Shown: positions 467 to 24,722 of the stretch, one piece after another
How the letters are laid out: every line of letters begins with the position of its first letter
Position numbering within the stretch: position 1 is the first letter of the stretch
The notes under the pieces: generated by a model
What the model was told of the DNA's origin: nothing
The model's input: the letters and a program-made list of their open reading frames with translations, nothing else
Database searches by the model: none
Program-made: the position numbers and the translations under genes
Source of the DNA: a virus
Taxonomy: Duplodnaviria; Caudoviricetes
Strand: one strand, 5' to 3'
IMG/VR virus record: IMGVR_UViG_3300019124_000001
Span: 32,001 to 96,000 of that record
Length of the DNA: 64,000 nt

Positions 467-546
467 TTGCATAGTTCTTGCCTATTGACAGAGTTGCTTA
501 TCACTGTTATAATGACTAAAGATTCAATTACATAGGAGGTTTTGGC

Positions 547-858
547 ATGATCATTCTGCACTCGTACAATGCAAAAGAAAACGGTGAAATCGTTACAAAG
601 TGGGTTCTCTTCAAAACTAAGAACGCGAACTACACAAAGTCGATTATCGAGAAAGTCCGTGACTATCTGGCGAAACACGTTCATCCGAAATACAAAGAGA
701 TGTCCGATGTAGCCATTAAAAATGGCTACACGATCAAGTATGACGACGAATGTCTCAAATTGGATAAATATGGCGGTGAAGAGTGGTACGAACTGCGTGA
801 CAGAACATCCTTTTGTCTCAAAGAAACAAGGCATGTGACCATCGTAAATATTGACTAA
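547..858 (+). CDS. Hypothetical phage protein
   Basis: TTGACA-17-TATAAT promoter, AATTACATA, GGAGG RBS. Confidence 0.8.
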   Translation: MIILHSYNAKENGEIVTKWVLFKTKNANYTKSIIEKVRDYLAKHVHPKYKEMSDVAIKNGYTIKYDDECLKLDKYGGEEWYELRDRTSFCLKETRHVTIVNID

Positions 859-1264
859 CAAAACAACCACTCCACAGGAGGAGTCGCACATTGAACGTGA
901 TAAACAAGCGTAAAACGTGGTTTGATCGAGTTACGCGAAAGATCAGAAATACAGTCAAGAAAGCCATCCATTGAGATGGCTTTCTTTTGATCAAGTCAAT
1001 TTATTGCGGTGAAGCACTGAACTACAAATAGGCAGAATTATTTGCATAGTCAGTTTTTTTCACTGCAAGGGGATAGTGTGGGTGTTCGTCCAAATACTCA
1101 TATAAGGGCAAATAGAAGCCTTAGCGGGCAGGTTCGCAACAGGAGATCGAATGGAAATGTACGCAAGCAACTTAGAAATTTTCTGTTGACATATTATTCA
1201 TATTCATTTATTATGATAGCTAAGAGGAGGATTTTCCTCAACAATTACATAGGGAGAGATTAAA

Positions 1265-1627
1265 ATGAAAGATCGCAAGGTTTATCCTGCCGAACACTTC
1301 GCTAATTCGGTAGTAGTGGAATACCAAGATAATGATGTCCTTTTTTCTGTGGTCAAGCGGAACGATGGAACCGCAAGTGTGCTAAACCTGTTTGGTGGAA
1401 GCATCGACAGCAAATGTGCACTTGTACAGCGATTCTTCCAAGAGTTTCCAGAAGTTTGGAAGCTCACAAACCAAGTTCACAATGTTAGTGAACTAAAGGC
1501 ATGTTATAAAGCTGGATTGCGGTATCACTCACAAGAGTCGAATTGTCCGTTTAATCTTTCGGAAACGGTTGCTCTTGTCAAAGCACATGAAGTGCCTAGC
1601 GTAAAAATGATCTGGAAACGCTCCTAA
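1265..1627 (+). CDS. Hypothetical phage protein
   Basis: Promoter, AATTACATA leader, RBS and terminator. Confidence 0.8.
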   Translation: MKDRKVYPAEHFANSVVVEYQDNDVLFSVVKRNDGTASVLNLFGGSIDSKCALVQRFFQEFPEVWKLTNQVHNVSELKACYKAGLRYHSQESNCPFNLSETVALVKAHEVPSVKMIWKRS

Positions 1628-1878
1628 ATGGGGCGTTTTTCAATTTTCTGTTGACATATCTTCCGCAACGTGTTATATTCAAGATACGAGAGGTGTCCAA
1701 CGAATTCGGGGGAAGAAAGGCAGGGATGCGCTCTCGCTTTAGCGAAGTAAAGCGTAGAAGTTGCGTCGAGCTTTTTCAATTGCTTGTTGACACATGGAGT
1801 TTTTGATGGTATTCTTATATCAAGAGGTGAAACTACCTTACTCAATACGCGTCATAAGCGCATAGGAGGAATTACATA

Positions 1879-2307
1879 ATGAACCGCTTCAACCGCTATC
1901 AACTGAAACCGCTTGGAAAATCTGTTCACCATCGTCAAATCATCGGAAAGGTCAATTATCACGGATTTCACACGTTTGTTGATGTATACAGCACTTTGGC
2001 AGGCGAAGAAATGCATGAAGTTTCTGGCAAAGTGCTTGTAATTAAGTTCAAAGGTTCTGAAGAAACTAGGGAAACCATCGTGCATGGTGGTTACACTTCA
2101 GACGGAAGACGGGTAGCGTTCTGCCATCAAAAAACGGTTGCACCAGAAGACATGGAATATTGGCTGAACCTGACTTGCGAAACAGAAGAAGAAAGAGAGG
2201 GGGAGCGCAAGAGGATAGAGGAGTTCCGCAAAAACCCTGAAACGTATGCGACACTGATTGACGCGAATGGATATGAATATATCCGTATTGAAGATACTAC
2301 CCTTTAG
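1879..2307 (+). CDS. Hypothetical phage protein
   Basis: GGAGG-AATTACATA-ATG start, terminator after stop. Confidence 0.8.
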   Translation: MNRFNRYQLKPLGKSVHHRQIIGKVNYHGFHTFVDVYSTLAGEEMHEVSGKVLVIKFKGSEETRETIVHGGYTSDGRRVAFCHQKTVAPEDMEYWLNLTCETEEEREGERKRIEEFRKNPETYATLIDANGYEYIRIEDTTL

Positions 2308-2547
2308 GGTAGTATCTTTTTATATGGCTTAAATCCAACATTCGCGCTATGGCTTCTATCTGGTCATGTGCGGCGTTTTGGTGGCTCTAGGCTATATTCG
2401 TATTGGGTTGACTAGAAAAGCGCCTTACAAGCCAAAATAGAAGGTCAAAAATATTTTCAATTAACTGTTGACACTTATGGTTGCACATGGTATATTGTTT
2501 TCAGGGGCAGATAAGCCCGAAACAATTACATAATCGGAGGGGTTCAA

Positions 2548-2880
2548 ATGGCAACACTTATCGTAAATCCTGACAACACTCGTATGCGCCGTGTGGAGAG
2601 TCATCAGCCGTTTCTGGCTGATTTGGACGAAATGCGCAAGTATGGCGTAAAAGCGTTCGTCCTGTCGTGGCTGATCGCACACTTCGATCATAGTGGCGAA
2701 AATATGAGAGATTTTCATTGGACAAAGTTGGGCGAAGAAACGGAAGTTCTTAACTGTCAGGGCTTCTATGAATGGGACGAACGATTTACTTTGTCTTACG
2801 TGGCTCTGACCATCGACGGATTCTTGATCGCCGTCATGCAAGACGCAAACGACGATGAAGTTAAATACCAAATCAACTAA
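2548..2880 (+). CDS. Hypothetical phage protein
   Basis: Promoter, RBS and terminator cassette. Confidence 0.8.
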   Translation: MATLIVNPDNTRMRRVESHQPFLADLDEMRKYGVKAFVLSWLIAHFDHSGENMRDFHWTKLGEETEVLNCQGFYEWDERFTLSYVALTIDGFLIAVMQDANDDEVKYQIN

Positions 2881-3032
2881 AGTTAAGCGGTGGGGAAACT
2901 CACCGCTTAACTTTTTATGGATGCTACGAAAAACTTTTAACATAGTGTTGACAGTGTGTTCTATTGGTGTTATATTATAGATAAGACGACAGCACAAAAC
3001 ATGCGCAACGAGCGCAAAGGAGAGAATTACAT

Positions 3033-3296
3033 ATGACGGAACACGAAAAGAAATACAGCGAAATTGTCGAAGCGGTGGGTTTGAATAATCTGATTCCTCT
3101 TATCCCTGCAACGAAAGAAGAAGTGCAAGATGCGCTCTCATGTAACTGTTATTTAAACAACATTCCTCTTCAAAGTTGGGACATGCAACACTTCAATGTT
3201 CTCAGATTGACTAAACGAGCAGGATATCAGGATAATTCGTTATCGTTTACGGTATGCGTTCTGAAACAAGCGGCTAGAATGTGGGCAAAATCATAG
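3033..3296 (+). CDS. Hypothetical phage protein
   Basis: AAGGAG-AATTACAT-ATG start. Confidence 0.75.
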   Translation: MTEHEKKYSEIVEAVGLNNLIPLIPATKEEVQDALSCNCYLNNIPLQSWDMQHFNVLRLTKRAGYQDNSLSFTVCVLKQAARMWAKS

Positions 3297-3454
3297 TATT
3301 TTATAACCCTGTATCTCTACAGGGTTCTTTTTAACTGAGCAGTTATCTGAATATTCCGTGTATTCAATTGATTGTTGACTTTCTTTTCCGTATCCTGTAG
3401 TATTATGTTTGTAAGAGAACAACACGCGCATAGCGCAAAAGGAGACAATTACAT

Positions 3455-3883
3455 ATGGCAAACGCTTACTACGAACTGAAACAGAAACATCAGGCAGAAG
3501 TAAACAACTTCCCGATGGTGTTTGCATTTAGCAAACAACAGTTTGCGGAAGCAATGGAGAAACTTGGGTTGACGGAAGCCGACACTGACAAAATCTATTC
3601 TATCGGTGGCGGTGGATTCATTCGCAAATCTGATTCGGATGCATTTGGTGAAATGTTTAAACGCCACGCCAAGGAAATGCAGGAAGCCGTTGACGCTGAC
3701 AGCACAGGAGATGGATTCGTATTTGACATGTTCAACTACGAATTAGCTAATCATGAATATGTCTTGACATATGATGTTCAGCCCGCTCTCGACGCTTTAG
3801 ACCTCACCATAGAACAGGTCAACACAGACCCGAAACTCAAACATGCTCTCGAAAAAGCATGTAAAGCACAATTTGAAGTATAG
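3455..3883 (+). CDS. Conserved Firmicutes phage/MGE protein (AFSxxQF...GGGGF...FxYELxNHEY family)
   Basis: Recognisable conserved motifs; RBS and terminator. Confidence 0.75.
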   Translation: MANAYYELKQKHQAEVNNFPMVFAFSKQQFAEAMEKLGLTEADTDKIYSIGGGGFIRKSDSDAFGEMFKRHAKEMQEAVDADSTGDGFVFDMFNYELANHEYVLTYDVQPALDALDLTIEQVNTDPKLKHALEKACKAQFEV

Positions 3884-3987
3884 CAAGCACATAAACCCAT
3901 AGCAATATGGGGTTTGTGCTATATATTAATTATCAGAAAATTTTGTATATTCAATTGGGTGTTGACATTACCTTACATCTCATGTAA

Positions 3988-4459
3988 TATAAGACTTGTA
4001 AGGCAAATCAATTACATAGTGCGAAGCACACAGGAGGAGCCAAAATGAACAACACGAAAACCATCTTCAATACCGATGAAACCTTTGTCTATCAGATCGT
4101 TGTTGATGGTAAGGAAACGAAATACTACAAAGGTGTTCATGACCTGTTCGAAAACTGCGGTTTCCGTTTGACGGGTGTAAATCAGTCTCAAAGCACACGC
4201 GAAGAACTGCAACGGCAACCGAAATTCAGCGGGTTAATTGGTCCGATGTGGAACGGCTATCATGAACTTGAAGGTGTTAAGTATCCCTGCATTAGATACG
4301 AATGCCCGAAAGAATATGCTACCTATGCAAACTAAAGCAGGGCTTCCCCTGCTTTTTCTAATTTGTCAATTTACTGAAAATTCCGCGAATCCAATTTACT
4401 GTTGATATTATATCTATCTGCCTGTATTATAAGACTTGTAAGGCAAATCAATTACATAG
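3988..4459 (+). repeat. 32-bp direct repeat TATAAGACTTGTAAGGCAAATCAATTACATAG (3988-4019 and 4428-4459)
   Basis: Identical copies in adjacent cassette leaders. Confidence 0.9.
4045..4335 (+). CDS. Hypothetical phage protein
   Basis: AGGAGG RBS, terminator. Confidence 0.8.
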   Translation: MNNTKTIFNTDETFVYQIVVDGKETKYYKGVHDLFENCGFRLTGVNQSQSTREELQRQPKFSGLIGPMWNGYHELEGVKYPCIRYECPKEYATYAN

Positions 4460-4473
4460 GGAGATGGAAGAAC

Positions 4474-4803
4474 ATGGCACAAAACTTTGAGTACCTTTGC
4501 AGTACGCCTGTAGAAGAGGATTGCGCACAAGTAGGGGAGGAAAATTATGAGCAACGCGCAAAACGCGAATGTCGTGCCCTCATTGGTCAACTTATACGGA
4601 TGTACGGCGAACCGCCTGAAGGTGTGACGCTGGTCACTAAGGGGTTCCCGCACGATTTTGGGACGTATTACGAAGTTATCGTTAATTTCGACGATGCGAA
4701 CAGGAAACAAACTGCATACGCTTGTATGCTGGTTGACGGGCTTCCTGACCTTTGGGACGAGCAAGCAAGGGAAGAGTTAGGGCTGAACGAGAAAACGGCT
4801 TAG
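4474..4803 (+). CDS. Conserved phage protein (TPxEEDCAQVG...FPHDFGTYYEV family)
   Basis: Start moved to ATG 4474 after RBS; conserved motifs. Confidence 0.75.
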   Translation: MAQNFEYLCSTPVEEDCAQVGEENYEQRAKRECRALIGQLIRMYGEPPEGVTLVTKGFPHDFGTYYEVIVNFDDANRKQTAYACMLVDGLPDLWDEQAREELGLNEKTA

Positions 4804-4922
4804 AAGGGCAAATAGACGGGGTGAAAGCCCCGTTTTTGTTTTTCAATTGCATATTGACACGTTTAGAATAGTGGTGTAATATATTAGATGTAAGCGACAA
4901 TTACATAAGGAGATGGGGAAAC

Positions 4923-5429
4923 ATGAGAATTGAACCGTTCCAACAAACCGTAAACAACTCGCAAACGTTGAGTGTAGGAAGCAAATTCAACGTTAAGCTG
5001 TACGAGAAGGATACTGTAAACGTCTGGAAGGTAGAAACCATCGAAAGTGTTTCCGTGATGGGAGATAAAACCACTGTGACTGGCAAAGCGTCATTCGTTG
5101 AACAGGTCGAATTGCGTTCTTTGATGGACTTGTTACACGAAACTCAATCTGGCTTGTTCTTCCGAACAGTCGGAAAATGGAGGTTGCGCGAAACAATTAC
5201 GGGCTTTCTTGTAGTCGAACACGAAACGAAGGGCGAATACGGGTTTATGAGTCAAAAAGTAGAATGGAAGGGCAAGACTTTTGACAAGCTACCCAATGCT
5301 GTTCGTGCAGTGATTCAAGAGTGGTGGGAACTGAAAAACCCGCGCTACGAAACCCGCCCTCTTTTGGACGGGAAACAGATGGCAAGTATGCATTCAAACC
5401 TCAATGAATCTGGTCGTTACAAGATATAG
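4923..5429 (+). CDS. Hypothetical phage protein
   Basis: Promoter, AATTACATA, RBS. Confidence 0.75.
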   Translation: MRIEPFQQTVNNSQTLSVGSKFNVKLYEKDTVNVWKVETIESVSVMGDKTTVTGKASFVEQVELRSLMDLLHETQSGLFFRTVGKWRLRETITGFLVVEHETKGEYGFMSQKVEWKGKTFDKLPNAVRAVIQEWWELKNPRYETRPLLDGKQMASMHSNLNESGRYKI

Positions 5430-5777
5430 CGAAACATCTGATGGGTGAATATGGATTAATTGAAAACAAACAACAAAAACAGGGTATTGTCTGCCCTGTT
5501 TTTGTTGTTGACAATTCCACTTTAGTACGGTGAAGCGTCTAATCATTGAATAGTGCTATAGGACTAGTATTAAAGTCATGTTGTCGTCTACAGGCTCTAG
5601 GAGCCATTTTAAGCGATTTTACCCCTTATCTGGTATAATCCTATTCGGATGATGTGAAACGCCATTCTGGTGGCATTCTAAGGGCTGTGTTTTTGTTGGT
5701 GTTCCTGTTAGAATGGGGTTGCAAACGCAAGACACTAGATTATAATAAGGATATAGACTGATAAGGTGGTGTTTCGT

Positions 5778-5933
5778 ATGGAGATCACAACAAATTGCTT
5801 GGGGCAAGTGTGGGTAAAGTGTGTTCGTGACTATTATGTTGGTAAACTTCGTACAATGAAGAAAGATGAATTTTATTTAATCCATCTTTCAACTGCAAAA
5901 ATGCTACAAGCTCAAGGGTTTGTTGAAATCTAA
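5778..5933 (+). CDS. Small hypothetical protein (51 aa, MEITTNCLGQVWVK...GFVEI); not in ORF track
   Basis: TTGCAA/TATAAT promoter, AAGGTGG RBS, hairpin terminator; resembles 53534-53727. Confidence 0.6.
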   Translation: MEITTNCLGQVWVKCVRDYYVGKLRTMKKDEFYLIHLSTAKMLQAQGFVEI

Positions 5934-6808
5934 ATAATTACATATTAAGCAGACGTAAATAAATGCGTCTGCTTAATTCATGTTAATAATTATCAGATAA
6001 TTGCGAAGAATTAGAATAGTTTCTTTGCTACGGCGAAGCGGCGATACTGCGTACTTTAGAACGGTGAAGCGTTAGTCTTTCGAACAGTGAAGCGGCATAG
6101 CAGGGAAATCACGGAATATGCAGAATAGACTGACATATTTGACAATTCTAACTATAATTGAGATCGCCGCTTGCAAAATATGCATTTAACTTCAGATGAA
6201 ATCACTGTTTTATCCAACGTTGAACAGGTGGGGACATTGACATAAGACATCTTTAATAATAACTTAAATCAACAATAATTGAATAAATGTTAATCATATT
6301 GATAAGGAATCTCTAATCTTAGGATACAAACACTGAATATTCTGAATTTTATGAATAGAAGAACTTTTCAACAGGGTGTTGAAAAATGGCATTTTTCCAC
6401 TAGGAAACTTTTTGTCGAATCGCTTCTAAAGCCCCTAGAATGTCCGTAGAGACGTGCAATACGTTGCCCATATATTCCCCTTGGCACCCTCCAAAAAATC
6501 GTTTGTACGGGAAATTTCCCGAATATGCAATAACGTATTCATTCTGAGCAATTCTGATAATTCGAGAAGGCTTGATACGTCTAGGTTTTATACCCCCGCA
6601 GGGTATATGATGCGCATTGCATATTCTGCATAATATGCAACGTGTGGGAAATATTTGACTATATAGTACAAATGAGAGGGCTTGACATAAATATTTTTTT
6701 GTGCATTATTCAACATAGTGTTGACAAATGAATTTCTGCTGACCAATCATTGACCGAGCATCCCTTTTATGGTATGTTAATCTAGATAAAACAATCGGAG
6801 GGATTAAA

Positions 6809-7243
6809 ATGAAATCTTACTTCACTAAACTTAATAATCGACTGAAAGCGCGTGACAACAATTATCATCTATTGTTAATTATCGAATGTTTTGTAATACT
6901 TACATTTGTAATAAATGTGATTTTAGGTGATATGATGTTTATTTTATTTCAAGGAATCCTGCTGTTAATAATGAGAGAGTTAAGACAGAATTTAACTAGA
7001 TCGTGGCAGGAGTTACAACTTTATAGATTACATATTAATAGGAAAATAATTATTCACTTAGAAGAGTTAATAGAGATAGAAAAATGGACAGTAAGAGGAA
7101 TGCAGACAGTGATTCAAGTCAGAGTTTATAGAGCAATACAAAATGAAATAAGGAAGGAAACTGAAGAAATTAGGGAATCTCTTGAGGCGTATGAAGTGGA
7201 TTTATCTAAAGAAGCAATAGTCGGACAATTTAAAGATGCTTGA
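6809..7243 (+). CDS. Predicted membrane protein, very AT-rich
   Basis: Two hydrophobic segments; GGAGG RBS. Confidence 0.65.
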   Translation: MKSYFTKLNNRLKARDNNYHLLLIIECFVILTFVINVILGDMMFILFQGILLLIMRELRQNLTRSWQELQLYRLHINRKIIIHLEELIEIEKWTVRGMQTVIQVRVYRAIQNEIRKETEEIRESLEAYEVDLSKEAIVGQFKDA

Positions 7244-7470
7244 CATCCCTGTCAATATATGATAAGATTTTGTCAGTATCACCCGATTCCTAATTTGAAC
7301 GACACAAAATGTGTCGGGCTGTAGGCTATGCGCTTACAGCTTTCTTTTTGTGTAAAAATTTTAGAAAATTCTGTATATTCAACAGAGTGTTGACACTTGT
7401 ATTCAAATGTTGTATACTCGTTTTAGTGGCAGATATACCACGACAACAATTACATAATGGAGGGTTCATA

Positions 7471-7791
7471 ATGACTGTGTTTACGAATGACCTGACTGTT
7501 TTGCAAGGCGAAGACCTATTTAAGCAGTGCCTGAAAGAAGCATGGTACACCTCTCATCGTGGACAGGTTGGAGAGTTCGATAATCTCGATAAGCAGGATA
7601 TTGCAAGCGTCCTATTTAAAGCTCTGCACGAGCTTGACTTGATCAAAGAAGGCGAATTGGACAACATGCACCACATGAGCCGTAAAGCGTATAAACGCAA
7701 GCTGGAAGCCTTCTTGGTGCGTTGGGCAAAATACTGCGACAATCCAGACGATGCGGACATGTACAAAGAATTCCTCGAAACCACCGAATAG
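7471..7791 (+). CDS. Hypothetical phage protein
   Basis: Start moved to ATG 7471 after AATTACATA-GGAGG. Confidence 0.75.
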   Translation: MTVFTNDLTVLQGEDLFKQCLKEAWYTSHRGQVGEFDNLDKQDIASVLFKALHELDLIKEGELDNMHHMSRKAYKRKLEAFLVRWAKYCDNPDDADMYKEFLETTE

Positions 7792-7876
7792 GTGGTTTTT
7801 CTTTTTAATAAGGTATTGATATAATTTTAAAAATATGCTATAATTAAGAAAAGTCGTAATTACATAGGGGGAAAAG

Positions 7877-8278
7877 ATGAATTATCAGCGTCATATGTGC
7901 ACATGCGGAAAAAGACCTGTACGCTACAAAGGACTATGCAATCCTTGTTATCGCGCACAACAAATTAAGGCGAAGCGACAAAAGCAAAAAGAGGAGGAAA
8001 TTAAAAGTACTTTTGAGATCGCCCAACAGCTTTTAGATCAATGGGAAAAAGAAATGAGAGAGTCAGTTAGAGAGGGAGGAAGATATGTTCACTATCCGTC
8101 TCAAACGAAGTTGGTACAGATGATATGGGACGAGCTAAATGAAGAAGTAAAACGCCTAACGGTAGCGGTTTTGCAAAGCAGGAAGGTACATGTCGATGGG
8201 AGAGATATATTGAATCGCATAAAAGAAAGAATTGAAAATCCATCGAATCGCACAAGCATGGAAGAACAGCTAAAATAG
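7877..8278 (+). CDS. Hypothetical protein with N-terminal CxC...CxxC zinc motif
   Basis: CTCGK...GLCNPCY. Confidence 0.7.
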   Translation: MNYQRHMCTCGKRPVRYKGLCNPCYRAQQIKAKRQKQKEEEIKSTFEIAQQLLDQWEKEMRESVREGGRYVHYPSQTKLVQMIWDELNEEVKRLTVAVLQSRKVHVDGRDILNRIKERIENPSNRTSMEEQLK

Positions 8279-8358
8279 CTGTTCTTTTTCTATTGACACA
8301 CAACGCGTGACATGATATATTGAATATAGAGATTCAATTACATATCAGGAGGGTTATT

Positions 8359-8721
8359 ATGAGCCGCAATAAGCCAAGAATCAAACATTATGGTGATGGA
8401 ATCACCCGCAATGCCGTTAAATCGTTTGCCCGCATGTTGCCAAAAATGGGCAATATCACGGTTGTACGTGGAGAGTTTGACAACAGTCGCAAATGGTATC
8501 GAGTTCGTTTCATTAACGACATGGGTCATCAGTTCGTTTTTCACGGATTCGCATGGTGGTTTGGAGGAGAAGGCCCGAACGGACTTGTAAAATGCCTGAT
8601 CTCGTTAGGGTTCGAGTACGAACAAGTGAAGTGGTTAATGGGGCGCGAGTGGGCAGGAGATAATCACATGCCAAATTGCTGGAAGCTGGAAGTGCCACAC
8701 GCCCTAGGGGTGAAAGCATGA
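8359..8721 (+). CDS. Conserved phage protein (GFAWxxGGEGPxGL)
   Basis: Start moved to ATG 8359 after AGGAGG. Confidence 0.75.
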   Translation: MSRNKPRIKHYGDGITRNAVKSFARMLPKMGNITVVRGEFDNSRKWYRVRFINDMGHQFVFHGFAWWFGGEGPNGLVKCLISLGFEYEQVKWLMGREWAGDNHMPNCWKLEVPHALGVKA

Positions 8722-8912
8722 AAGAAGCAATCTTAGGAAAGTATACATTTACTTTCCGTGGCAAGAATGGTAATGTACAAACCATCGAAATACCCGCATT
8801 CGTTGAACATCAAGCATATATGTATGCACGTGATCTAGCAGAACAATTAATGTTCTACTGGGAATGCGAGGTAAGTTATGAACGAAACTTACTGATACAA
8901 AATCGCTCCTAA
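8718..8912 (+). CDS. Hypothetical protein
   Basis: ATGA overlap with upstream gene. Confidence 0.6.
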   Translation: MKEAILGKYTFTFRGKNGNVQTIEIPAFVEHQAYMYARDLAEQLMFYWECEVSYERNLLIQNRS

Positions 8913-9005
8913 TTGGGGCGATTTTCTTTTTGTTCTTATCTGTTGACAGTGTTACTTATGACTGCTATAATAATAATAGATTCAATTACATAGGGGGAAA
9001 TACTA

Positions 9006-9320
9006 ATGGAAGATACAGAAATTGTATTGATCAAGACGAATGCAGATATCAAGATACGAGAAAATCAACCGTTTATCTATGAAAATATTAAATACATCTG
9101 TAAACGGATCATCACATTGACCTTCGAAGAGTCAGCGCGTTTTCGTATCCAGTTGGAAGTGTCAGCGATTCGCTTAGAAGGCGAGGTTTGTCCGCACTGC
9201 CCAATGCCTATTTATGGAAGCCAACAGGCATTGAGACACAATGGACAAGTGATGCACCTGAAGTGCGCAATTGAATCAGGAGACTTTGAAAGAATACGAA
9301 AAGAAGCAAGCCCCCAATAA
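9006..9320 (+). CDS. Hypothetical protein with CxxC...HxxC motif
   Basis: Cassette with promoter, leader and terminator. Confidence 0.7.
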   Translation: MEDTEIVLIKTNADIKIRENQPFIYENIKYICKRIITLTFEESARFRIQLEVSAIRLEGEVCPHCPMPIYGSQQALRHNGQVMHLKCAIESGDFERIRKEASPQ

Positions 9321-15888: not shown

Positions 15889-16131
15889 GTGAGTTCGACA
15901 ATGTACATCACTGTAGTTAAAGGAATATTGACAGGTCGAATCGGAAGCGATTCGACGAACAGAGCCACGGATAAGGTTCATGTAGTTGCTAGAAGTGGTA
16001 ATGAGACTGTGTGCGGAATTAAACTCAAAAACAGCAAATCTCTAGGATTTCCAGAGATAGCAGAATCGAAAGAGGTAAATTGCAAGCGCTGTAAATCGTC
16101 TTACTATGGAGACTTGGCAATAGAGATTTAA
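15889..16131 (+). CDS. Hypothetical protein (H...CG...CKRC zinc motif)
   Basis: Promoter and RBS. Confidence 0.6.
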   Translation: MSSTMYITVVKGILTGRIGSDSTNRATDKVHVVARSGNETVCGIKLKNSKSLGFPEIAESKEVNCKRCKSSYYGDLAIEI

Positions 16132-16172
16132 TGCTAAGTTATCTACGAATTACATAATCGGGAGGTTATTAT

Positions 16173-16430
16173 ATGGGCAGTATGAAGTTTAATGAGGAAT
16201 GTTGCTGTCAAGAAGAACCGAAGTCAATCGGAAGATACGAGGGCATCAATCGCACATTTTTCATCTATGCAAAATCGAATGAAGGCACATTTGGAGCCAT
16301 TCTCGTAGGCGCAAGTTACGAAGAAGCGGAATGGCTCCAATGGAGCCTGTCTGAAGCTGGTAAGAGCGTATGCGCTGACAATGGTAGAGACGATGAAATG
16401 ATTTACGAAGACGAAATCGTTTGGACTTAA
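16173..16430 (+). CDS. Hypothetical protein
   Basis: AATTACATA-GGGAGG leader. Confidence 0.65.
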   Translation: MGSMKFNEECCCQEEPKSIGRYEGINRTFFIYAKSNEGTFGAILVGASYEEAEWLQWSLSEAGKSVCADNGRDDEMIYEDEIVWT

Positions 16431-16518
16431 AACAAAATGTGGCATTGTCTATTGACAATTGCCACATTTTGTTTTATAATAATGGTAGATCGAATTACAT
16501 AATGAGAGGGCAGATATT

Positions 16519-16719
16519 ATGTCTTGGAAAAATGAGAAGCAAAATTATATTAATCTTGGAGGAGGTAACGGTTGGAAAGAAATTAAACTCTGTCCTTTAA
16601 TTTTCGAAAAAGCTCTCTCTGAAGAGGAAGTTGAATTGTTTTGGTCTTTCGTAAAAAGGGTTCAACAGAAGGAAGCAGAAATCTATGGCGATGATTCAGA
16701 AGGCTATGGATATCTGTAA
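16519..16719 (+). CDS. Hypothetical protein
   Basis: First gene of a small-ORF array. Confidence 0.6.
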   Translation: MSWKNEKQNYINLGGGNGWKEIKLCPLIFEKALSEEEVELFWSFVKRVQQKEAEIYGDDSEGYGYL

Positions 16720-16937
16720 ATGAAATGTTGGTTTTATTTAGAAAGGGAGTTGATGTTATGTGGTACTGGAAAGCAAAAACAAAGGATGGTCAAGAGTTGT
16801 GTGGTCATTGTGAAGATTATAACGGCGCTTTAGATACTTGTTTGGCAGAAAATCCACAATACAAAGATGAGGACATTATTCAAATTGAAGTTTTGGAAGA
16901 CTAAATGAAACGTTGATTTCATAATAAAGGAGGGATA

Positions 16938-17123
16938 TTGATGTTTACGCTATTCGAGGTGGATGGAGCAAGCAAGTGGTATAGAACTGACGATGATATT
17001 TACAATGTCCTCGAACGACAAGATGGAGTATTCTTAATTTACAAATTGCGAGAAAATGAATACATCTATACAGGAATTAAATATCACTCGTTGCAAGAAT
17101 GCGAAAATGCAATAAAAGGTTAG
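16938..17123 (+). CDS. Hypothetical protein
   Basis: AAGGAGG RBS. Confidence 0.55.
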   Translation: MMFTLFEVDGASKWYRTDDDIYNVLERQDGVFLIYKLRENEYIYTGIKYHSLQECENAIKG

Positions 17124-17374
17124 ATTCGCAGAAAGGAGGTGGGTGCAAAATGATCGCATTATCTTTCATTGTGTATTTGGCATCGCTGTACTTTGGTTAC
17201 AAACTAATGAAAACGGATAGCAATAAAATACTTAACCAAAAGGATAAAATACTTATTTCTATATGGTTTACTATATTCATCGTATCTCAGGTTATTTGGA
17301 TCGGAGGAGTCATGAATGCAATTATGTCGTAAATAAAATTTTACTTCTATAAATACGAAAGGAGTTGAAGTGCA

Positions 17375-17581
17375 ATGTTAAATAGTTTTACTGATAGTAA
17401 AAATCAAAAAGGCACCATTGGATCAAAAGTTTGTCATTGGATGACATTTGGCAAACCCAATGCAGAAGTGAAGGGTGTTATTAGAATTTATAAACGTGGC
17501 AAGGCTGGAACTATGCTTCTGCTGGAAGGAGATCGGACAACGGTTCCAGCAAAGAGTTACACGATTATTAATAAATTTTAG
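17375..17581 (+). CDS. Hypothetical protein
   Basis: AAAGGAG RBS. Confidence 0.55.
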   Translation: MLNSFTDSKNQKGTIGSKVCHWMTFGKPNAEVKGVIRIYKRGKAGTMLLLEGDRTTVPAKSYTIINKF

Positions 17582-17808
17582 TTTCGCAAGGAGTTTTTAA
17601 AGTGGAGAAAAGAAAACGAACATTATGGTGGAAGGCAATTGACAGCAAAGGGGTTACTATCGACCTCTGTATAGCCGAAAACAAAAAAATTGCTGAATAC
17701 GCATTCAAAAGAGCATCAAAGAAGTTTGTAGACAAATACGTTGACTGGAAGGATACCGTGATTCTTTATGAAGATTAATTTAATTCAATAAAAGGGAGTG
17801 TTTGGAAT

Positions 17809-18051
17809 ATGAACAAGTGGACTTTGCGTGATGAACTTATGTGGGCAGGATACAGCTTCGGAGAAGCTACTAGGCTCATCTTGAACGGCAATGTATCAAT
17901 CAACGAAGTGAAATGCAAAAAACCTAAGCAGGAAGTGATCGACGGTAACTTAATTTGGGTAGACAAAAGAAACAAGGTCATTCGACTGACAAATGGAAGA
18001 AAGGTTAAACCCAAGTCCCAACATGAGTCTTGGGTTTCAAGATACATCTAA
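17809..18051 (+). CDS. S4-like RNA-binding domain protein
   Basis: S..EA.RLI.NG.V.IN......P...V..G..I.V.KR pattern as in S4/TyrRS C-terminal domains. Confidence 0.6.
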   Translation: MNKWTLRDELMWAGYSFGEATRLILNGNVSINEVKCKKPKQEVIDGNLIWVDKRNKVIRLTNGRKVKPKSQHESWVSRYI

Positions 18052-18053
18052 GG

Positions 18054-18416
18054 ATGAAACGGAAAATTAATTTATATCTGGACGATCTTCGAGATTGTCC
18101 GCAAGGGTTTGTGGTTGCTAGGAATATCGAAGATGCAATTCGAATATTAAAAGAGTACGAAGTTGACATTCTGACACTTGACCATGACTTAGGAGAGGAC
18201 GAAAACGGAAACCTTCTACCCTCTGGCTATGATCTCGTGAAATACATGTGCGAAAACGGGCTTCGTGCCAACAAAATCTACATGCATACCGATAATAGTG
18301 TAGGTCGTGAAAATATGTATCAAACGTTGCTTGGGGCGCAAAGAAGAGGTTTTATTGATGAAGATATTGAAATTTATTATTATCCCATCACTAAAAACGT
18401 TTACACTGGCTACTGA
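18054..18416 (+). CDS. Cyclic-phosphate-processing receiver-like domain protein
   Basis: LYLDDLR.CP.GF..AR, LDHDLG, GYDLV, HTDN.VGR.NM. Confidence 0.8.
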   Translation: MKRKINLYLDDLRDCPQGFVVARNIEDAIRILKEYEVDILTLDHDLGEDENGNLLPSGYDLVKYMCENGLRANKIYMHTDNSVGRENMYQTLLGAQRRGFIDEDIEIYYYPITKNVYTGY

Positions 18417-18728
18417 TTCGGAAGAAATGAAGGTAATAAAGTTTTAACAAATAACGGATATTGTCAATTGACAATATCCGTTATTTGTTATATACTAGAA
18501 CTATCAACTTAAAAAGGGGGTGAGTTAAATGAAATTTTACAAATCTGATAGAGACGGCAAAATATATGTTAAGTATGATGGCGAATGGTATGTCAGAGGT
18601 GACAACAACATCTGGCATCAAACACTTCTGCCATCTAGCATTGTCGCATTAGAAGATGACGAAGATTTTAAAGCTGATTTTGAAAAATTCATTTATTCTA
18701 ATTAATCATGCATTTGGAGGTGAATTAA

Positions 18729-18935
18729 ATGTGGGACAAATTCTTCGATGAAGAAACGAGCGAAAAAATAGAAGGTCTGAAACGCGCAATTGGCGACTGC
18801 TATTTCCGCATAGCTACTCATCCTGACAACGAAGAGTATCGTCAGCAACAACTAGAGATGGCGAATAAGTACGGCAAGCAGTTGCAGGATGTTATCGAAA
18901 GTTTTCTTAGGAACATAAAAACAGCAAACGACTAA
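18729..18935 (+). CDS. Hypothetical protein
   Basis: GGAGGTG RBS. Confidence 0.6.
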   Translation: MWDKFFDEETSEKIEGLKRAIGDCYFRIATHPDNEEYRQQQLEMANKYGKQLQDVIESFLRNIKTAND

Positions 18936-19010
18936 CAATAAATCCTCTCAATTGTTTGTTGACAATTGAGAGGATTTATTGTATAATTGAATTAGAAAGG
19001 AGGTGCAAAA

Positions 19011-19571
19011 ATGCAGAAAGTTGTATCCGAAATCTCAATTCGCGAAGTATCATTGTTCCTTGGCGATAGAATCAAAGAGATTCGTTCTGAACAGGAAAAG
19101 AGATACGCAAACAACTTTATGGCAAAAGCGATTGGCATGAACAGGGAGACATTGCGCCTAAAGCTGATCGGAGACAGAGAGTTGTATACATACGAATTGG
19201 AAAAGATCGCAAAGTTGTTTAACGTTTCCGTTGATCGAATCTTAGGTACTGACTTACAACAGAAGTACAGATTTCTTTACAACTTCATGAAAAACAACCC
19301 TCTTATTACTGTGTCTCTTGCGCAAGAGTTGGTCAGAGATGCAGTAGGAAGAACAGAACGATTGTTCGCAATGTTTAATTTGACAACATGCTACTACTTA
19401 AATAGCAACTACAATGAAGTGTCTACATGCTTCTTTGATATTCAGAAAATCGTAGGTAATGACGAACATGCTGAATACTTAGGACACTACTACAAGGAGT
19501 TCGTCTCCTCTTTGTTTGCTGGAAACCTGAATTTCTATCAGGTTGCATTAGACATCAGTACACTTAAATAG
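19011..19571 (+). CDS. XRE-type HTH regulator with short TPR-like tail; truncated paralogue of 33679-34704
   Basis: LGDRIKEIR...MAKAIGMNRETL...ELEKIAKLFNVSVDRI; AVGRTE vs AIGITE. Confidence 0.75.
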   Translation: MQKVVSEISIREVSLFLGDRIKEIRSEQEKRYANNFMAKAIGMNRETLRLKLIGDRELYTYELEKIAKLFNVSVDRILGTDLQQKYRFLYNFMKNNPLITVSLAQELVRDAVGRTERLFAMFNLTTCYYLNSNYNEVSTCFFDIQKIVGNDEHAEYLGHYYKEFVSSLFAGNLNFYQVALDISTLK

Positions 19572-19608
19572 TAATTCATGTTCAATTACATAGAAACGGA
19601 GCGAAGAC

Positions 19609-19932
19609 ATGCCAAAAAGAACAACTCCACAATGGCACTACCCAACACCTGAAGGTTGGCACTACAATCCTACGTTCGGGGTGTTTCAAAAGTGCCACGA
19701 TAAACGATTCGTCTACATTACCCGCATGATCGGATTTTACATGCTTCAAATCTACGACAGAGGACGCACCATTGGTCACTGTGGTTTGGAAGCCAGAAGT
19801 CGAAAACGTGATTTTGACGCACTTGTAAAACTAGGAGAAGAGTGGTTGGAGAAGTATGGAGACGGAAAGCCCTATGATGTCAAGGAGGGCGAACTGTTTT
19901 CTCTGTGGAGTGGTAATTGGTATATCGACTAA
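19609..19932 (+). CDS. Hypothetical protein
   Basis: AATTACATA leader. Confidence 0.6.
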   Translation: MPKRTTPQWHYPTPEGWHYNPTFGVFQKCHDKRFVYITRMIGFYMLQIYDRGRTIGHCGLEARSRKRDFDALVKLGEEWLEKYGDGKPYDVKEGELFSLWSGNWYID

Positions 19933-19964
19933 GGGGGCGATATTATGAAAGGAGGTGAATAGCT

Positions 19965-20480
19965 TTGATCTTTTGGACTGTCCAACGCAAGCAAGCATGG
20001 GAACAGTTTCAGCTAAATGGTACGATGAGCGGCAACAGGTCTTTTATGGACGATTGGTGGGCAACTAAGTATCAATGGATGATGGAGCAAATGCGTAAGC
20101 GTATTAAAGGTTATGGTGGGAAATACCCTGTTTGGGTATGGACTGAAAGACCAGACCTAAGACAAAGTGCGCTCTTGTCGCGTGGCACGGAAGGAGTTCT
20201 TTTAAAATTGGAACTTCCTCCCGAAAAAGTTTTATTGTCAGATTTTGACGCATGGCATATCGTTCTCAATGAAGGATATGTGGGCTTGTCTGAACAAGAA
20301 TTAGACTTATACTATAATGACAAAGAAACTCCAATTACAGCACAAGAATCTTGGGAGAGAATCTTTGACCTTCAGGCTGTAAGATGGGATTCCGAATGTG
20401 GTGAATATCAGACACAAGGAGTTGTTGAAGAAATTAAATTGTCTCAAGTATTACATGTGAAACCTTTTATAGCTCGATAA
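19965..20480 (+). CDS. DUF3841-family protein
   Basis: WTVQ, Y.WM..QM, YPVWVW..RPDLR, VLLSDFDAWH.VLN, SWERIFD. Confidence 0.75.
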   Translation: MIFWTVQRKQAWEQFQLNGTMSGNRSFMDDWWATKYQWMMEQMRKRIKGYGGKYPVWVWTERPDLRQSALLSRGTEGVLLKLELPPEKVLLSDFDAWHIVLNEGYVGLSEQELDLYYNDKETPITAQESWERIFDLQAVRWDSECGEYQTQGVVEEIKLSQVLHVKPFIAR

Positions 20481-20562
20481 TAGCAAAAACCGTGCAATTC
20501 TTGTTGACAAGTTGCACGGTTTTTGCTATTATTTAAATGCAAGATAATTACATATTGGAGGT

Positions 20563-21974: not shown

Positions 21975-22145
21975 CAATGTAGACGATGGGTTTAACCCCA
22001 TCGTTTTTTACTAATATAATGCTTTAGTGCGGTGAAGCGTTAGTCCGATAAATTAATTTAGAATGTTTCCGATATTCATTTGCCTGTTGACATATTGGCT
22101 ACTTATTGATATACTTGAAATAGAAGGCAAGTCAATATTACATAG

Positions 22146-22331: not shown

Positions 22332-22639
22332 TGGAATGGATTCGTGTAAACGCAAGTAAGCTATTTGTTGAGTACGATGGTTATCCCTCATGGGATCTTT
22401 TGAGTCTTGATACTCAAAAAGGCGAAGCTGTTATTCGACGAATGGACGATGTGCTAACGGTTTCAATTGCTGACACGAAATTTAGTTTAGCAATAAATGC
22501 TGATCATCTGGAAACACCAAAAATGCACGGATGTCCGTTGTGCGGTCAAATCATCACAAAACAATGGCGCGAACACTACCTGATCCCACGTGAAGAAAAA
22601 CGTATGTCAAAGCACCAAGAGGAGTCTAATAAATGTTAG
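22331..22639 (+). CDS. Hypothetical protein
   Basis: Translationally coupled ORF. Confidence 0.6.
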   Translation: MEWIRVNASKLFVEYDGYPSWDLLSLDTQKGEAVIRRMDDVLTVSIADTKFSLAINADHLETPKMHGCPLCGQIITKQWREHYLIPREEKRMSKHQEESNKC

Positions 22640-22896
22640 GTAGACTCATTCGTCCTGCTGGATTATCTGAGCTTGAATGGAAGGTGCGTCAGGCAAGACA
22701 AAGGTACGCTGGAAAGACGATAGCCGTAATCACTAAAGCTGATGGTCTTTCACAGTTAAAATTCATTGCCAAGTTGAAGGTAAATGAAATTGAAGCAGAT
22801 CAACACCTTAAAGAAGTATTGGTTCGCGTGTCACCCGTGGTTGGCATTGGTGAACAGGCGATCAAGCTATCTGACTTCGAACGAATGATGCTATAA
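22633..22896 (+). CDS. Hypothetical protein
   Basis: GAGGAG RBS, terminator. Confidence 0.6.
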   Translation: MLGRLIRPAGLSELEWKVRQARQRYAGKTIAVITKADGLSQLKFIAKLKVNEIEADQHLKEVLVRVSPVVGIGEQAIKLSDFERMML

Positions 22897-23363
22897 ACTA
22901 AAGCCCTAGCAAATATTTGCTAGGGCTTTAGTTTATAGTGTGTATTTAAATAAGACAAATAGCAAACATCCCAACTTTAGAGATGTTTGCTATTTGTCAA
23001 ATAATTATGAACTTGACAGAGAGCCTATCTATTTAGTTCGATACCTCTCCACAGAAGCCCCCGCGCTCTGTTCCGTACTGGTCGCTGTCCAAGCGGCTCT
23101 CTGTCAAAGAGTAGGTGAGAAGTGGATAAAGCAAAGGGACACAACCCACCCGCTCAGTATCAGGTCGCACAGGGGAATACTGTCTGCTTTTTTATCGCAA
23201 CAGCATTGTACGTCCCTGACAACTATTATAATACTATAAAAATTAATGTATGTCAATAGGTTTGCCAATGTTTTAATTTTCTGACTATTCAATTGCATGT
23301 TGCTTATTAGTGTGTATTGAGGTATAATGAAAACAAGGCGAACAAAGGGGAGCGAACAATAAA

Positions 23364-23720
23364 ATGAATAGATGGCATTCAATTAAATTCTCATGTGGTC
23401 ATGAAAGCACATTTATAAATCTCGATGTTGTCAACAAGTGGGAACACAGATTTGTAAATGGACAAACGCTTTGCTATAATTGTCGAATCGAAAACAATAG
23501 AATCCAAGTGTTAGAACAAGACATCTATCTAGTTGTCGAACAATACGCAACACAACGCATTCACTTGAGTTGTAGTTTGAAAGACAATGAAGAAATTAGA
23601 AAGAAAGGGGATTTCGCTTACTATCTCAATCATGATAAAGGTACGAGCATAGTCCCTTATCATTGGTTAGTAAATGAAGCATTAAGATTTAAGAAATTAT
23701 TACATAGGAGGAATGATTAA
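23364..23720 (+). CDS. Hypothetical protein (CGH...CYNC)
   Basis: Promoter and RBS. Confidence 0.6.
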   Translation: MNRWHSIKFSCGHESTFINLDVVNKWEHRFVNGQTLCYNCRIENNRIQVLEQDIYLVVEQYATQRIHLSCSLKDNEEIRKKGDFAYYLNHDKGTSIVPYHWLVNEALRFKKLLHRRND

Positions 23721-24046
23721 AGATGAAATTTGGAGAAGATTTCGTAATGGAAGATGGAAATATTTTGTTGGTGGAAAAAAGAAGTGAATTTTGGGAAAAC
23801 TGGATTCCGAAAAGATAAAGCAGAAACAATACAAACAAAATCAGGATTAAGAAGATAGGTATTATAAGTACCTATCTTTTTTATTTCATTTCCTATTAAA
23901 TAGATTGTTATTTCGATTTATCCATTTTTATATTAGATGAAATAACAGTTTTATCTATACGAATGTTCAACACAGTGTTGACACTAGTTAGAGTTGGTGT
24001 TATACTGTATATAGAAGGTAAGAATTATGAAAAGGAGGATAAATGG

Positions 24047-24634
24047 ATGTATAGCAACAAACAACTTGAACAGGCGACACATAAGATGGGACAGACTGGA
24101 ATTTCCATCTTGAACAGCATCTTTTGGTCTACGGCGTTGAATGGTGTTGCAACTCGCAGTCCGAATCGAAAGCTGGAACTGATGCTGAAGACTGCAATGT
24201 TCGTCGAAACTGGCGAAAGCTCTATTGAAGTTCAACGTTTTGAAAAATGGTTTTATAATGGGGTAGCTCCGCAACGCGTTTGCGATGCCATGCTGAAAAT
24301 TACCGACTACCTATCCCAAGTGTTTCCGACTCCATGCAAAATACGTGCGCTCGACATCGTGCCGCTTTATATGACGGCAAGCAAAGCGATCTATCACGGC
24401 ATTTCTGCTGATGCTTTTCGTAGCATCGTAACGGAATTTTTGTCGTTCAAACGTAGTGTTTCGGCTAAGGTTTCAAAAATGCCAAACAAAGATATCTTGC
24501 AATCGTACTGGATTAATTACACTGAAGCCAGCAAGCAAGGTACGAACCGACAAGAGAAAGTTGACGCTCGAATCATTGCCATGTGGCAATTCCTCTTCAA
24601 TGTGTATAAACATATGGAAGATTGGCGAAAATAG
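24047..24634 (+). CDS. Protein resembling the C-terminal half of the DUF262 protein at 26354
   Basis: Start ATG 24047 after AAGGAGG; collinear motif similarity. Confidence 0.65.
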   Translation: MYSNKQLEQATHKMGQTGISILNSIFWSTALNGVATRSPNRKLELMLKTAMFVETGESSIEVQRFEKWFYNGVAPQRVCDAMLKITDYLSQVFPTPCKIRALDIVPLYMTASKAIYHGISADAFRSIVTEFLSFKRSVSAKVSKMPNKDILQSYWINYTEASKQGTNRQEKVDARIIAMWQFLFNVYKHMEDWRK

Positions 24635-24722
24635 TTTCAACAGGGTGTTGACGAATGCGTCTCGCCATGATATACTGTAAACAGAAAGCAGGAATTACAT
24701 AAGAAAAGGAGAGTGGACAAAA

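Follow-up and report, generated by a model that had tools for sequence, protein, structure and literature searches.

A nine-letter word beside the start sites of early genes in an uncultured phage, and its possible cleavage by a MazF-family ribonuclease

Why would a phage place the same nine-letter word, always on the same strand, beside the ribosome-binding sites of about 35 of its early genes? The question is raised by a stretch of 64,000 nucleotides (nt) of viral DNA (Caudoviricetes; IMG/VR record IMGVR_UViG_3300019124_000001), called the window below, which corresponds to bases 32001-96000 of the 163,787-base-pair (bp) record of an uncultured phage of Gram-positive bacteria; the ends of the record overlap by 127 bp. 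Positions are those of the window unless marked as genome positions. The word, AATTACATA, contains TACATA, and the phage encodes a protein of the MazF family, the toxin family of ribonucleases (RNases) to which Bacillus subtilis EndoA belongs. A first-pass annotation of this DNA had proposed that MazF acts at these sites and thereby operates a regulon of early messenger RNAs (mRNAs). Here we find that the count and the placement of the word are solid observations, and we give a probability of about one half to the reading that a MazF-family RNase cleaves the early leaders at U^ACAUA and so operates an early-mRNA regulon.

An exact-match count found 25 copies of AATTACATA in the window, all on the + strand, against a mean of 1.18 and a maximum of 5 in dinucleotide-preserving shuffles; none of the 100 shuffles reached 25. 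The full record holds 36 forward copies and no reverse copy, the same word read backwards, taken as a control, being found twice in each orientation, and AATTACATA is the most frequent 9-mer of the whole genome. The 24 copies reported in the first-pass annotation were all at the positions given there, and its description of the word as a sense-strand feature found mostly in leaders was borne out (36 to 0 by strand, and 34 of 36 near a start codon); one exact copy, at 5936 and outside any leader, had been overlooked. Three arms make up the record: a long one on the + strand (about 25-133 kb) and two on the - strand. All copies except one fall within genome 25066-56701, the early arm, and the remaining one lies at genome 82845. 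The word thus occupies the opening 32 kb of the + arm, where small genes follow one another, mostly with their own TTGACA-17-TATAAT promoter and terminator; in window 1-20000 a scan counted 82 promoter-like sites where 53.4 were expected, and 38 terminator-like sites where 13.8 were.

The position of the motif within these transcription units was analysed with a custom, crude caller of open reading frames (ORFs) and Shine-Dalgarno (SD) sequences, and the start codons used in scoring distances to SD and promoter were picked manually among the candidate ORF starts. A start codon lies -1 to +27 nt from the end of the motif in 34 of the 36 copies when ORFs of at least 25 amino acids (aa) are considered; of the two others, one lies ahead of a 22-aa ORF and one in a 3' untranslated stretch before a terminator. 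For 30 of the 36 copies a good sigma-A-type promoter was found no more than 110 nt upstream, and in these 30 the distance from the end of the -10 box to the motif ranges from 11 to 54 nt (median 27.5, standard deviation 14.4). The motif, being at least 11 nt past the -10 box, is therefore always transcribed, and the variable distance indicates no fixed link to the promoter. Motif and SD are no more than 6 nt apart in 26 of the 33 sites scored by script, and in 28 of the 33 by eye, with GGAGG abutting the motif at genome 32526 and 82845; where the gap is wider, a small GC hairpin is interposed. Two layouts were seen. In 11 leaders the order is hairpin-SD-motif-AUG, the final A of the motif being the A of the AUG in six of them, and in 24 leaders it is motif-(hairpin)-SD-AUG.

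Alignment of the sites on the motif gave an information content of 1.5-2.2 bits at the nine positions, with the flanks nowhere above 0.8 bits. So little information outside the nine letters indicates a discrete, selected word rather than a copied cassette, and duplication of a cassette as the origin of the copies is ruled out on the same ground. The base directly 3' of the motif is A in 13 copies, G in 12, T in 11 and never C. The predicted folds of the leaders have no common structure; over the 30 sites with a good promoter, the mean unpaired probability was 0.69 for the motif, 0.65 for its core and 0.59 for the rest of the leader, with 16 of the 30 above 0.7 and a few predicted to be paired. 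Rfam models, applied at gathering score to the window and to genome 1-32000, gave no match at motif sites. Another short sequence, ATCAAGA, is conserved right after the -10 box, at the 5' end of the transcript, in many early promoters (for example at 10961-10967).

The individual sites of the window, all on the + strand, illustrate both layouts. The order SD-motif-ATG, already recognised in the first-pass annotation at four sites, was found at all four: at 1870-1878 the motif stands between GGAGG and ATG 1879 (142 aa), with a hairpin ahead of the SD; at 3025-3033 and 3447-3455 its final A is the A of ATG 3033 (87 aa) and ATG 3455 (142 aa), respectively; and at 10995-11003 it separates GGAGG from ATG 11005 of a 415-aa gene. 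Elsewhere the motif precedes the SD. It abuts the SD at 526-534 (GGAGG; ATG 547, 103 aa), where it begins 12 nt past the -10 box of a perfect TTGACA-17-TATAAT promoter, at 4450-4458 (ATG 4474, 109 aa), at 4899-4907 (ATG 4923, 168 aa), at 7858-7866 (GGGGG; ATG 7877, 133 aa), at 8984-8992 (ATG 9006, 104 aa), which has a perfect sigma-A-type promoter upstream, and at 10266-10274, where the SD is that of the 22-aa ORF (10288-10356) and is followed by a terminator and then by the mazF promoter. It also abuts GGAGG, after a hairpin, at 50845-50853 (ATG 50867, 79 aa), the sole exact copy outside the early arm. The motif lies 3 nt 5' of the SD at 2524-2532 (ATG 2548, 110 aa), 2 nt at 7448-7456 (ATG 7471, 106 aa), 2-3 nt at 8336-8344 (ATG 8359, 120 aa), 1-2 nt at 15336-15344 (GTG 15358, 75 aa) and 2 nt at 20546-20554 (ATG 20563 or 20569; 137 or 135 aa). 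Gaps of 6 nt are found at 9467-9475 (ATG 9495, 133 aa) and 14002-14010 (ATG 14022, 178 aa), of 5-6 nt at 24693-24701 (GTG 24723, 335 aa), and of 4 and 5 nt at 16148-16156 (ATG 16173, 85 aa) and 19584-19592 (ATG 19609, 107 aa), the latter two having no good promoter that we could find upstream. The motif is also 5' of the SD at 1243-1251 (ATG 1265, 120 aa) and at 16493-16501 (ATG 16519, 66 aa), the latter gene leading an operon of small genes, and at 4010-4018 it is followed by a small GC hairpin and then the SD (ATG 4045, 96 aa). The copy outside leaders, at 5936-5944, is 3 nt past the stop codon of a 51-aa ORF and is immediately followed by a terminator-like hairpin.

Which letters of the word are held constant was seen from its near-copies. 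Six one-mismatch copies occur in leaders, and all are altered at letter 1 or 2 only; AATTACATC, in which the last letter is changed, occurs four times, never in a leader. Because the leader variants differ only at letters 1-2, the invariant core is U followed by UACAUA; TACATA is intact in 36 of 36 exact copies and in 6 of 6 leader variants. The five variants named in the first-pass annotation exist and differ only as just described, but each truly begins one base further left: CATTACATA at 13321-13329, in a leader with a promoter upstream and an SD downstream; TATTACATA at 22136-22144, abutting the SD-like GGTGG, and again at 23698-23706, abutting GGAGG, both in leaders; AGTTACATA at 25877-25885, in a leader downstream of a promoter; and a second CATTACATA at 45965-45973, which belongs to the middle region and has a hairpin before it and an SD 1 nt after it. 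All five are on the + strand.

The hexamer within this core is one that MazF enzymes are known to recognise. The B. subtilis enzyme EndoA/MazF, long called UACAU-specific, is described in the accessible part of one report as cutting in vivo only where U/ACAU is followed by A, with 2-nt and 4-nt trimming of the cut ends (PMC11780869). In the portions of two further sources at hand, UACAUA is the in vitro preference of the MazF of S. thermophilum (PMC10893535), and UACAUA placed in the 5' untranslated region (UTR) of a reporter was acted on by the MazF of B. subtilis, L. monocytogenes and S. aureus, a specificity conserved in Bacillota (preprint 10.64898/2026.08.06.743204); in the same preprint, 80% of some 3300 reference species of Bacillota have a MazF. 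We estimate the chance that a random 9-mer contains UACAUA at about 0.001.

Coding sequences gave a further, suggestive sign of RNase avoidance. The sequences compared with synonymous-codon shuffles were the coding-strand ORFs of each arm that are 50 aa or longer (63 early, 165 middle/late). Sense TACATA occurs 5 times in the middle/late set against 13.0 expected, an approximately 2.6-fold depletion (z -2.55; 3 of 300 shuffles at or below the observed count), and TACATC (28 vs 23.5), TACATG (34 vs 26.9) and TACATT (42 vs 39.0) are not below expectation. In the late structural arm sense TACATA is absent, against 5.7-6.0 expected from Markov models.

The phage's own MazF-family protein is encoded at 10487-10867 on the + strand by a solitary gene (126 aa) with its own promoter (10420-10449) and terminator. 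Its product matches Pfam family PF02452 (PemK_toxin) at 3.4e-31 (108.1 bits against a cut-off of 23.1), in agreement with the claim of the first-pass annotation that the phage has a MazF; the NCBIfam MazF equivalogs match it only below their cut-offs. Among proteins of solved structure, S. aureus MazF and Bacillus EndoA are its best matches (E 3e-22 to 7e-19). In an alignment with the Bacillus-type chain, read by eye, the equivalents of G6, G18, E20, R25, P26, N36 and T48 (MazF-bs numbering) are conserved and Pro15 is replaced by Ile. Among these, Arg25 and Thr48 are catalytic, and Gly18, Glu20 and Pro26 contact the substrate, according to the available parts of PMC10893535 and PMC8634880. Upstream of mazF are the ORF of a 22-aa peptide, whose leader has the motif, and that of a 60-aa basic membrane-type protein. 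No recognisable antitoxin gene adjoins mazF, and no match to PF04014 (AbrB-type MazE) was found anywhere in the genome, the ribbon-helix-helix antitoxins not having been searched by family. AATTACATA is absent from the mazF leader. The absence of TACAT from the leader and coding sequence of mazF, which had been noted by eye, extends to the promoter (none in genome 42431-42900), although with about 0.5 expected this is weak evidence.

A second, distant phage that encodes a MazF also has the hexamer beside the SD in its leaders. MazF homologs, none of them reaching 60% identity, were found in 97 phage records; the best is that of Psychrobacillus phage Perkons, which, in its first 80.6 kb, shares 13 proteins with the phage studied here at 24-46% identity. 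Its plan is similar: a + strand array of small early genes, MazF mid-array, and an MrpR-like 'integrase' after it. Of 69 annotated early starts in Perkons, 9 have TACATA in the 40 nt that precede them, for the most part immediately ahead of the SD, against an expectation of 1.43; none of 2000 shuffles reached 9, and the antisense TATGTA is in one leader. With our own gene calls the counts were 8 of 63 early leaders (1.2 expected) and 10 of 90 middle leaders (1.5 expected). The flanks in Perkons are different (AAUACAUA), so that the hexamer alone is common to both phages.

No close relative came out of the nucleotide and protein searches that we made, and Perkons came to light only through a collection of named phages. 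Megablast of window 1-12000 against phages gave no match; as protein queries, the 415-aa early protein, DNA polymerase III alpha and MazF found distant matches only, and the loci examined were without the motif; and a 20-mer of the second repeated box, discussed below, had 0 matches in viral contigs and 0 in genome contigs. A 17-mer, GGAGGAATTACATAATG, was tried as a probe of viral contigs and set aside: its 32 stretches were single or chance-like matches in AT-rich genomes, and the extra AATTACATA copies at the five loci checked were mostly inside coding sequence. Judged by DNA polymerase III alpha, the nearest named relative is Brevibacillus phage Sundance (50.7% identity), and the phage is not close to SPbeta; a gene of the MrpR family is nonetheless present.

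In the reading that we favour, AAUUACAUA would be an RNA signal in the 5' leaders of early transcripts, and its invariant U^ACAUA would be the recognition and cleavage site of an EndoA-class MazF. A MazF-family enzyme would cut all early leaders at the same position; the cutter could be the phage MazF, perhaps with an extended specificity of 7-9 nt, the conserved host MazF, or both. In the 11 leaders with the order SD-motif-AUG, the cut would part the SD from the start codon, and the gene would be silenced. In the 24 leaders with the order motif-SD-AUG, it would leave a short leader with a 5'-OH end that still has its SD, and decay, stabilisation or unchanged translation might follow. The net outcome would be a coordinated post-transcriptional switch of the early genes, timed by the build-up of phage MazF or gated by the state of the host MazF. 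A more elaborate version, which we consider unlikely, would run as follows: the solitary, divergent phage MazF might have evolved a 7-9-nt specificity fitted to its own early leaders and serve as a RegB-like timer; the host-type hexamer might also put the early lytic programme under the control of the state of the host MazF, an enzyme that is active when cells are stationary or dormant, and the leaders would then sense host physiology as well; and in the six leaders that read U^ACAUAUG, cutting followed by the 2-nt and 4-nt trimming might yield mRNAs that start at the AUG, leaderless rather than destroyed. Four sequencing runs, all from one study, contain the phage; all are listed as DNA, a type that is itself a guess.

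A number of observations weigh against cleavage by MazF. The SD would survive the cut in 24 of the 35 leaders, and a 'switch off' is therefore not established. The pentamer UACAU, in which the first-pass annotation had framed the target, is without bias: TACAT occurs 231 times forward and 225 times in reverse over the genome, 18 times in early coding sequences against 19.1 expected, and 109 times in middle/late ones against 102.2. An enzyme specific for the pentamer could thus not be selective, and UACAU as the selective unit is ruled out. The three further conserved letters of the motif (AAU) exceed any known EndoA requirement. The depletion of TACATA in middle/late coding sequences is modest, as it places this hexamer 190th among 3626, within the 5% tail, and the 7-mer TTACATA shows no depletion there (3 vs 3.8 expected). 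As to the enzyme, identity is about 46% to S. aureus MazF and about 43% to Bacillus EndoA, as counted by eye, and none of the 52 candidates scored in a homolog search exceeded 52% apart from the phage MazF itself; it is thus no recent copy of a host gene, among the homologs found. MazF enzymes of the same clade have other 3' specificities, UACAAA and UUACUCA being reported in the available part of PMC10893535.

Other phages add to the points on this side. Sundance has no bias for the 7-mer. In SPbeta, TACATA was found in 2 of 57 leaders against 0.85 expected, which is no enrichment (57 annotated + strand genes within 50-100 kb). In Perkons the hexamer is also enriched in coding sequences, the reverse of its depletion in the phage studied here (55 vs 33.9 expected; with protein sequence and codon use taken into account, third, or second or third, of 1609 hexamers), between 30.6 and 80.6 kb it occurs 81 times forward and 21 times in reverse, and some of its sites resemble the Perkons -10 box. 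With this coding enrichment and -10 likeness, the comparison with Perkons supports selection of the hexamer and not a single mechanism. The proposal of a MazF-operated regulon thus came through in part: the invariant UACAUA is the hexamer cut by EndoA in vivo, the residues of the enzyme are conserved and the Perkons leaders agree, whereas UACAU is unbiased, the MazF is divergent and the SD would be lost in only 11 leaders. The two SPbeta leaders with the hexamer, a number not above chance, are those of yonT, a toxin gene, where TACATA lies between SD and start codon, and of yopO, where it lies 5 nt upstream of the SD.

The main rival to cleavage is an unknown RNA-binding protein. The 9-mer would be the RNA operator of a sequence-specific protein, of the phage or the host, which blocks the 30S subunit as RegA does or recruits the ribosome, and the match to the MazF hexamer would be a coincidence. 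Nine conserved letters are more than any known MazF requires, and occlusion would give one outcome for both leader layouts, which cleavage does not. Only 6 of the 62 early proteins scanned matched a Pfam family; most thus have no family assignment, and such a protein could be present among them. One 80-aa early protein has a sub-threshold match to the S4 RNA-binding domain (19.9 bits against a cut-off of 22.8). Homologs of RegB and RegA, however, were not found (PF10715 and PF01818; no match at E <= 1), and coincidence would have to meet the probability of about 0.001 given above for a random 9-mer. Moreover, variation among the leader copies falls precisely at letters that are not part of the hexamer, and Perkons has the hexamer without the flanks, which fits a conserved host-type enzyme better than a phage-specific binder. 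We hold this explanation to be unlikely, if the strongest of the alternatives to cleavage by MazF.

A second possibility is that the word acts as double-stranded DNA: it would be the site of an MrpR-family protein (tyrosine-recombinase fold), or of another DNA-binding protein, modulating transcription downstream of the early promoters. The phage does encode a protein (32220-33194) with an MrpR_N_CB match (PF22822; 3.2e-20, 70.1 bits, at 32241-32480), and there is a weaker second match. It also has a second repeat, ttgACAAACAAcAACTATGTATGgta, a 24-bp box in which 20 positions are invariant in 22 copies; these 22 were kept from 27 matches to the 9-mer core AACTATGTA, five without the left arm having been dropped. 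The box is found at middle-region promoters and leaders, often directly 5' of the SD; copies in the window are at 31755, 36364, 43146, 44368, 45925, 50181, 55598, 55705, 58310, 59482 and 63694, and there are more outside it. By our own derivation, the word A(C/T)AAAAAATATGTAT stands upstream of 7 of 7 SPbeta MrpR target genes in the stretch examined, the targets being those listed in the accessible part of PMC10516654. Since ttgACAAACAAcAACTATGTATGgta resembles this word, it is probably the analogue of the SPBRE of SPbeta, and it is likely to be the operator of the MrpR-family protein at 32220-33194.

Does the early motif belong to the same system? The box and the SPbeta element both contain TATGTA, the reverse complement of the motif's TACATA, a likeness that bears on the DNA half-site suggested in the first-pass annotation. 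Against this alternative, all 36 copies of the motif are in one orientation, opposite to that of the TATGTA of the box, and the box matrix scores at background on them (median best score -14.9 at the 36 sites, -15.9 in random windows and at least 32 in true boxes). The box and the motif have only 6 bp in common, and the motif is non-palindromic and without a partner half-site. Its position is tied to the SD and not to the promoter, from which it varies by the 11-54 nt noted above. The background scores and the tie to the SD make a DNA operator less likely, and we consider it quite improbable.

A third explanation would need no factor at all. The motif would be a cis element of the leader, an A/U-rich unstructured spacer, a standby site or a sequence pairing with host ribosomal RNA, for strong early translation. 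Eight of its nine letters are A or U, it is mostly unpaired, and it serves as the SD-AUG spacer in 11 genes. In primers, the natural leader of Bacillus methanolicus mdh-promoter vectors has the sequence CAATTACATAAATAGGAGG, with the same 10-mer 4 nt upstream of an SD in the context of a highly expressed bacterial gene (PMC10128131, in the part available). A/U-richness alone, however, would not demand an exact 9-mer in 36 copies with a fixed C. Pairing with an RNA encoded by the phage finds little to go on, with no exact reverse copy and five G-U-tolerant matches on + strand RNA, one of which lies in a non-coding tract at genome 23745. We regard a factor-free element as very doubtful. Finally, it is scarcely credible that a phage RNA polymerase, so far unrecognised, uses the motif as a short promoter and makes leaderless or very short-leader transcripts: the motif is, by eye, similar to the 3' portion of the other repeated box (CAAnTAnnTAnGG), and six copies end at the A of the ATG, but no match to sigma-70 region 2 was found, none to T7-type RNA polymerase either (a search that is uninformative, its control being silent everywhere), and the strong SD upstream of the motif in 11 genes would be pointless if transcripts began at the motif.

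Other features of this genome concern RNA ends and RNA repair. A Pistol self-cleaving ribozyme was found to the left of the window at genome 25935-26002 (60 bits against a gathering score of 34.5), in the intergenic leader of the gene at genome 26059, where it stands in the promoter's place about 45 nt upstream of a AATTACATA copy; its cut would leave a 5'-OH end, as that of MazF does. At 55736-58240 the window encodes an 834-aa, Pnkp-like RNA repair enzyme in which polynucleotide kinase, metallophosphatase and T4 Rnl1-type RNA ligase are fused, and elsewhere the phage has a protein of the CCA-adding/poly(A) polymerase family and PTH2, PhoH and PIN_4 domains. Such repair chemistry fits the 5'-OH and cyclic-phosphate ends made by MazF, ribozymes or anticodon nucleases. 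An array of 29 transfer RNAs (tRNAs) occupies L010:5072-10648 on the - strand, with anticodons that include CUA and UCA (suppressor-like) and UAU (Ile), and a skipping-rope RNA (71.4 bits) lies inside it at L010:8261-8339.

The remaining observations are on the genome at large. A non-coding element of about 250 bp is present in three copies, at L011:3975-4345, L011:4425-4700 (L011 coordinates plus 20000 give genome coordinates) and window 6340-6720, which have in common the palindrome TTCAACAnnnTGTTGAAAA and TTGCATATTCTGCATA; the window copy is within a gene-free stretch of 850 bp (5950-6800). Between the divergent arms, genome 23400-23980 is an approximately 600-bp tract, G-poor, AT-rich and strand-asymmetric, which might serve as an origin or lie close to the physical genome ends. 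Middle/late coding sequences strongly avoid restriction sites: the palindromic hexamers ATCGAT, AAGCTT and AGATCT are absent against 41.0, 40.9 and 26.1 expected, and CTTAAG, CGATCG and CGTACG are nearly absent. Pfam matches between 26354 and 47334 include GmrSD_N (26354-27808), a T7 gp5.9-like RecBCD inhibitor, an NMN transporter, NUDIX and AAA_28, and elsewhere in the genome there are a Tubulin/FtsZ-family protein, an HU-like protein and a YonK-family protein.

Recent work presents the MazF of Gram-positive bacteria as an mRNA regulator of six-letter precision, and phages that inhibit it, activate it or sense it have been described. Should MazF indeed cleave the early leaders, this phage would provide a concrete target architecture, a MazF site beside the ribosome-binding site of about 35 early genes together with a phage-borne MazF, and a Gram-positive counterpart of T4 RegB made from a toxin-antitoxin nuclease. 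It might also be a route by which phages of soil bacteria, which are often dormant, read the growth state of the host. The leaders are a natural set for defining the specificity of a phage MazF. Even if the word is a protein-binding or a DNA site, AATTACATA would still be the dominant regulatory word of the early region. Among the titles and abstract starts listed in our literature searches, none reported a regulon of MazF sites linked to ribosome-binding sites in a phage, or a phage MazF used in this way.

How does the proposed regulon compare with known systems? T4 RegB, which depends on S1, cuts GGAG in the SD sequences of early mRNAs. The likeness is that a sequence-specific RNase encoded by the phage inactivates many early mRNAs at the ribosome-binding site (PMC1702504, in the part available); unlike RegB, whose target is the SD itself, the enzyme proposed here would act beside the SD, belongs to the MazF/PemK family, and is found in a phage that has no RegB homolog. 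T4 RegA is one protein acting on many early mRNAs through a short operator that overlaps the initiation region. RegA operators are loose, whereas the phage motif is exact, and a RegA homolog is absent too. With the leaderless mRNAs ascribed to E. coli MazF, our reading has in common that a cut just upstream of the AUG would reshape translation, six phage leaders reading U^ACAUAUG; the E. coli model, however, is contested according to the accessible part of preprint 10.64898/2026.08.06.743204, and the phage sites, putative targets, are exact and phage-borne.

The SPBRE of SPbeta is, like the motif, a repeated intergenic element in a large Bacillota phage with an MrpR-family protein, and TATGTA/TACATA is common to both; in contrast to it, AATTACATA is downstream of promoters, in the opposite orientation and without a match to the box matrix, and the true analogue appears to be the separate 24-bp box. 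In phi3T and SPbeta (AimX, YosL, SroA/SroB), Bacillota phages inhibit, activate or sense MazF, and transcripts are enriched in UACAU, as far as the available portions of those reports go; SPbeta and this phage also share MrpR-family and YonK-family genes. There the host enzyme is modulated by protein binders, and those portions describe no regulon of sites linked to ribosome-binding sites, whereas this phage has a mazF of its own. The B. subtilis EndoA regulon differs in that the host sites are dispersed over a small group of mRNAs, while the phage has one site at the SD of about 35 genes, set within a 9-nt consensus, and in that the predicted nuclease of the phage is phage-borne, solitary and about 43-46% identical. 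It is alike in that UACAUA stands on sense RNA, predicted to be mostly unpaired in the phage leaders folded, that a site in the 5' UTR suffices for MazF sensitivity in a reporter (in the part of the source available), and that the phage encodes an enzyme of the family. Host MazF regulons, early shut-off of the T4 RegB type and the sensing of MazF by arbitrium phages are thus kinds of control that are already known, and the MazF-operated regulon suggested here would be a variant of these.

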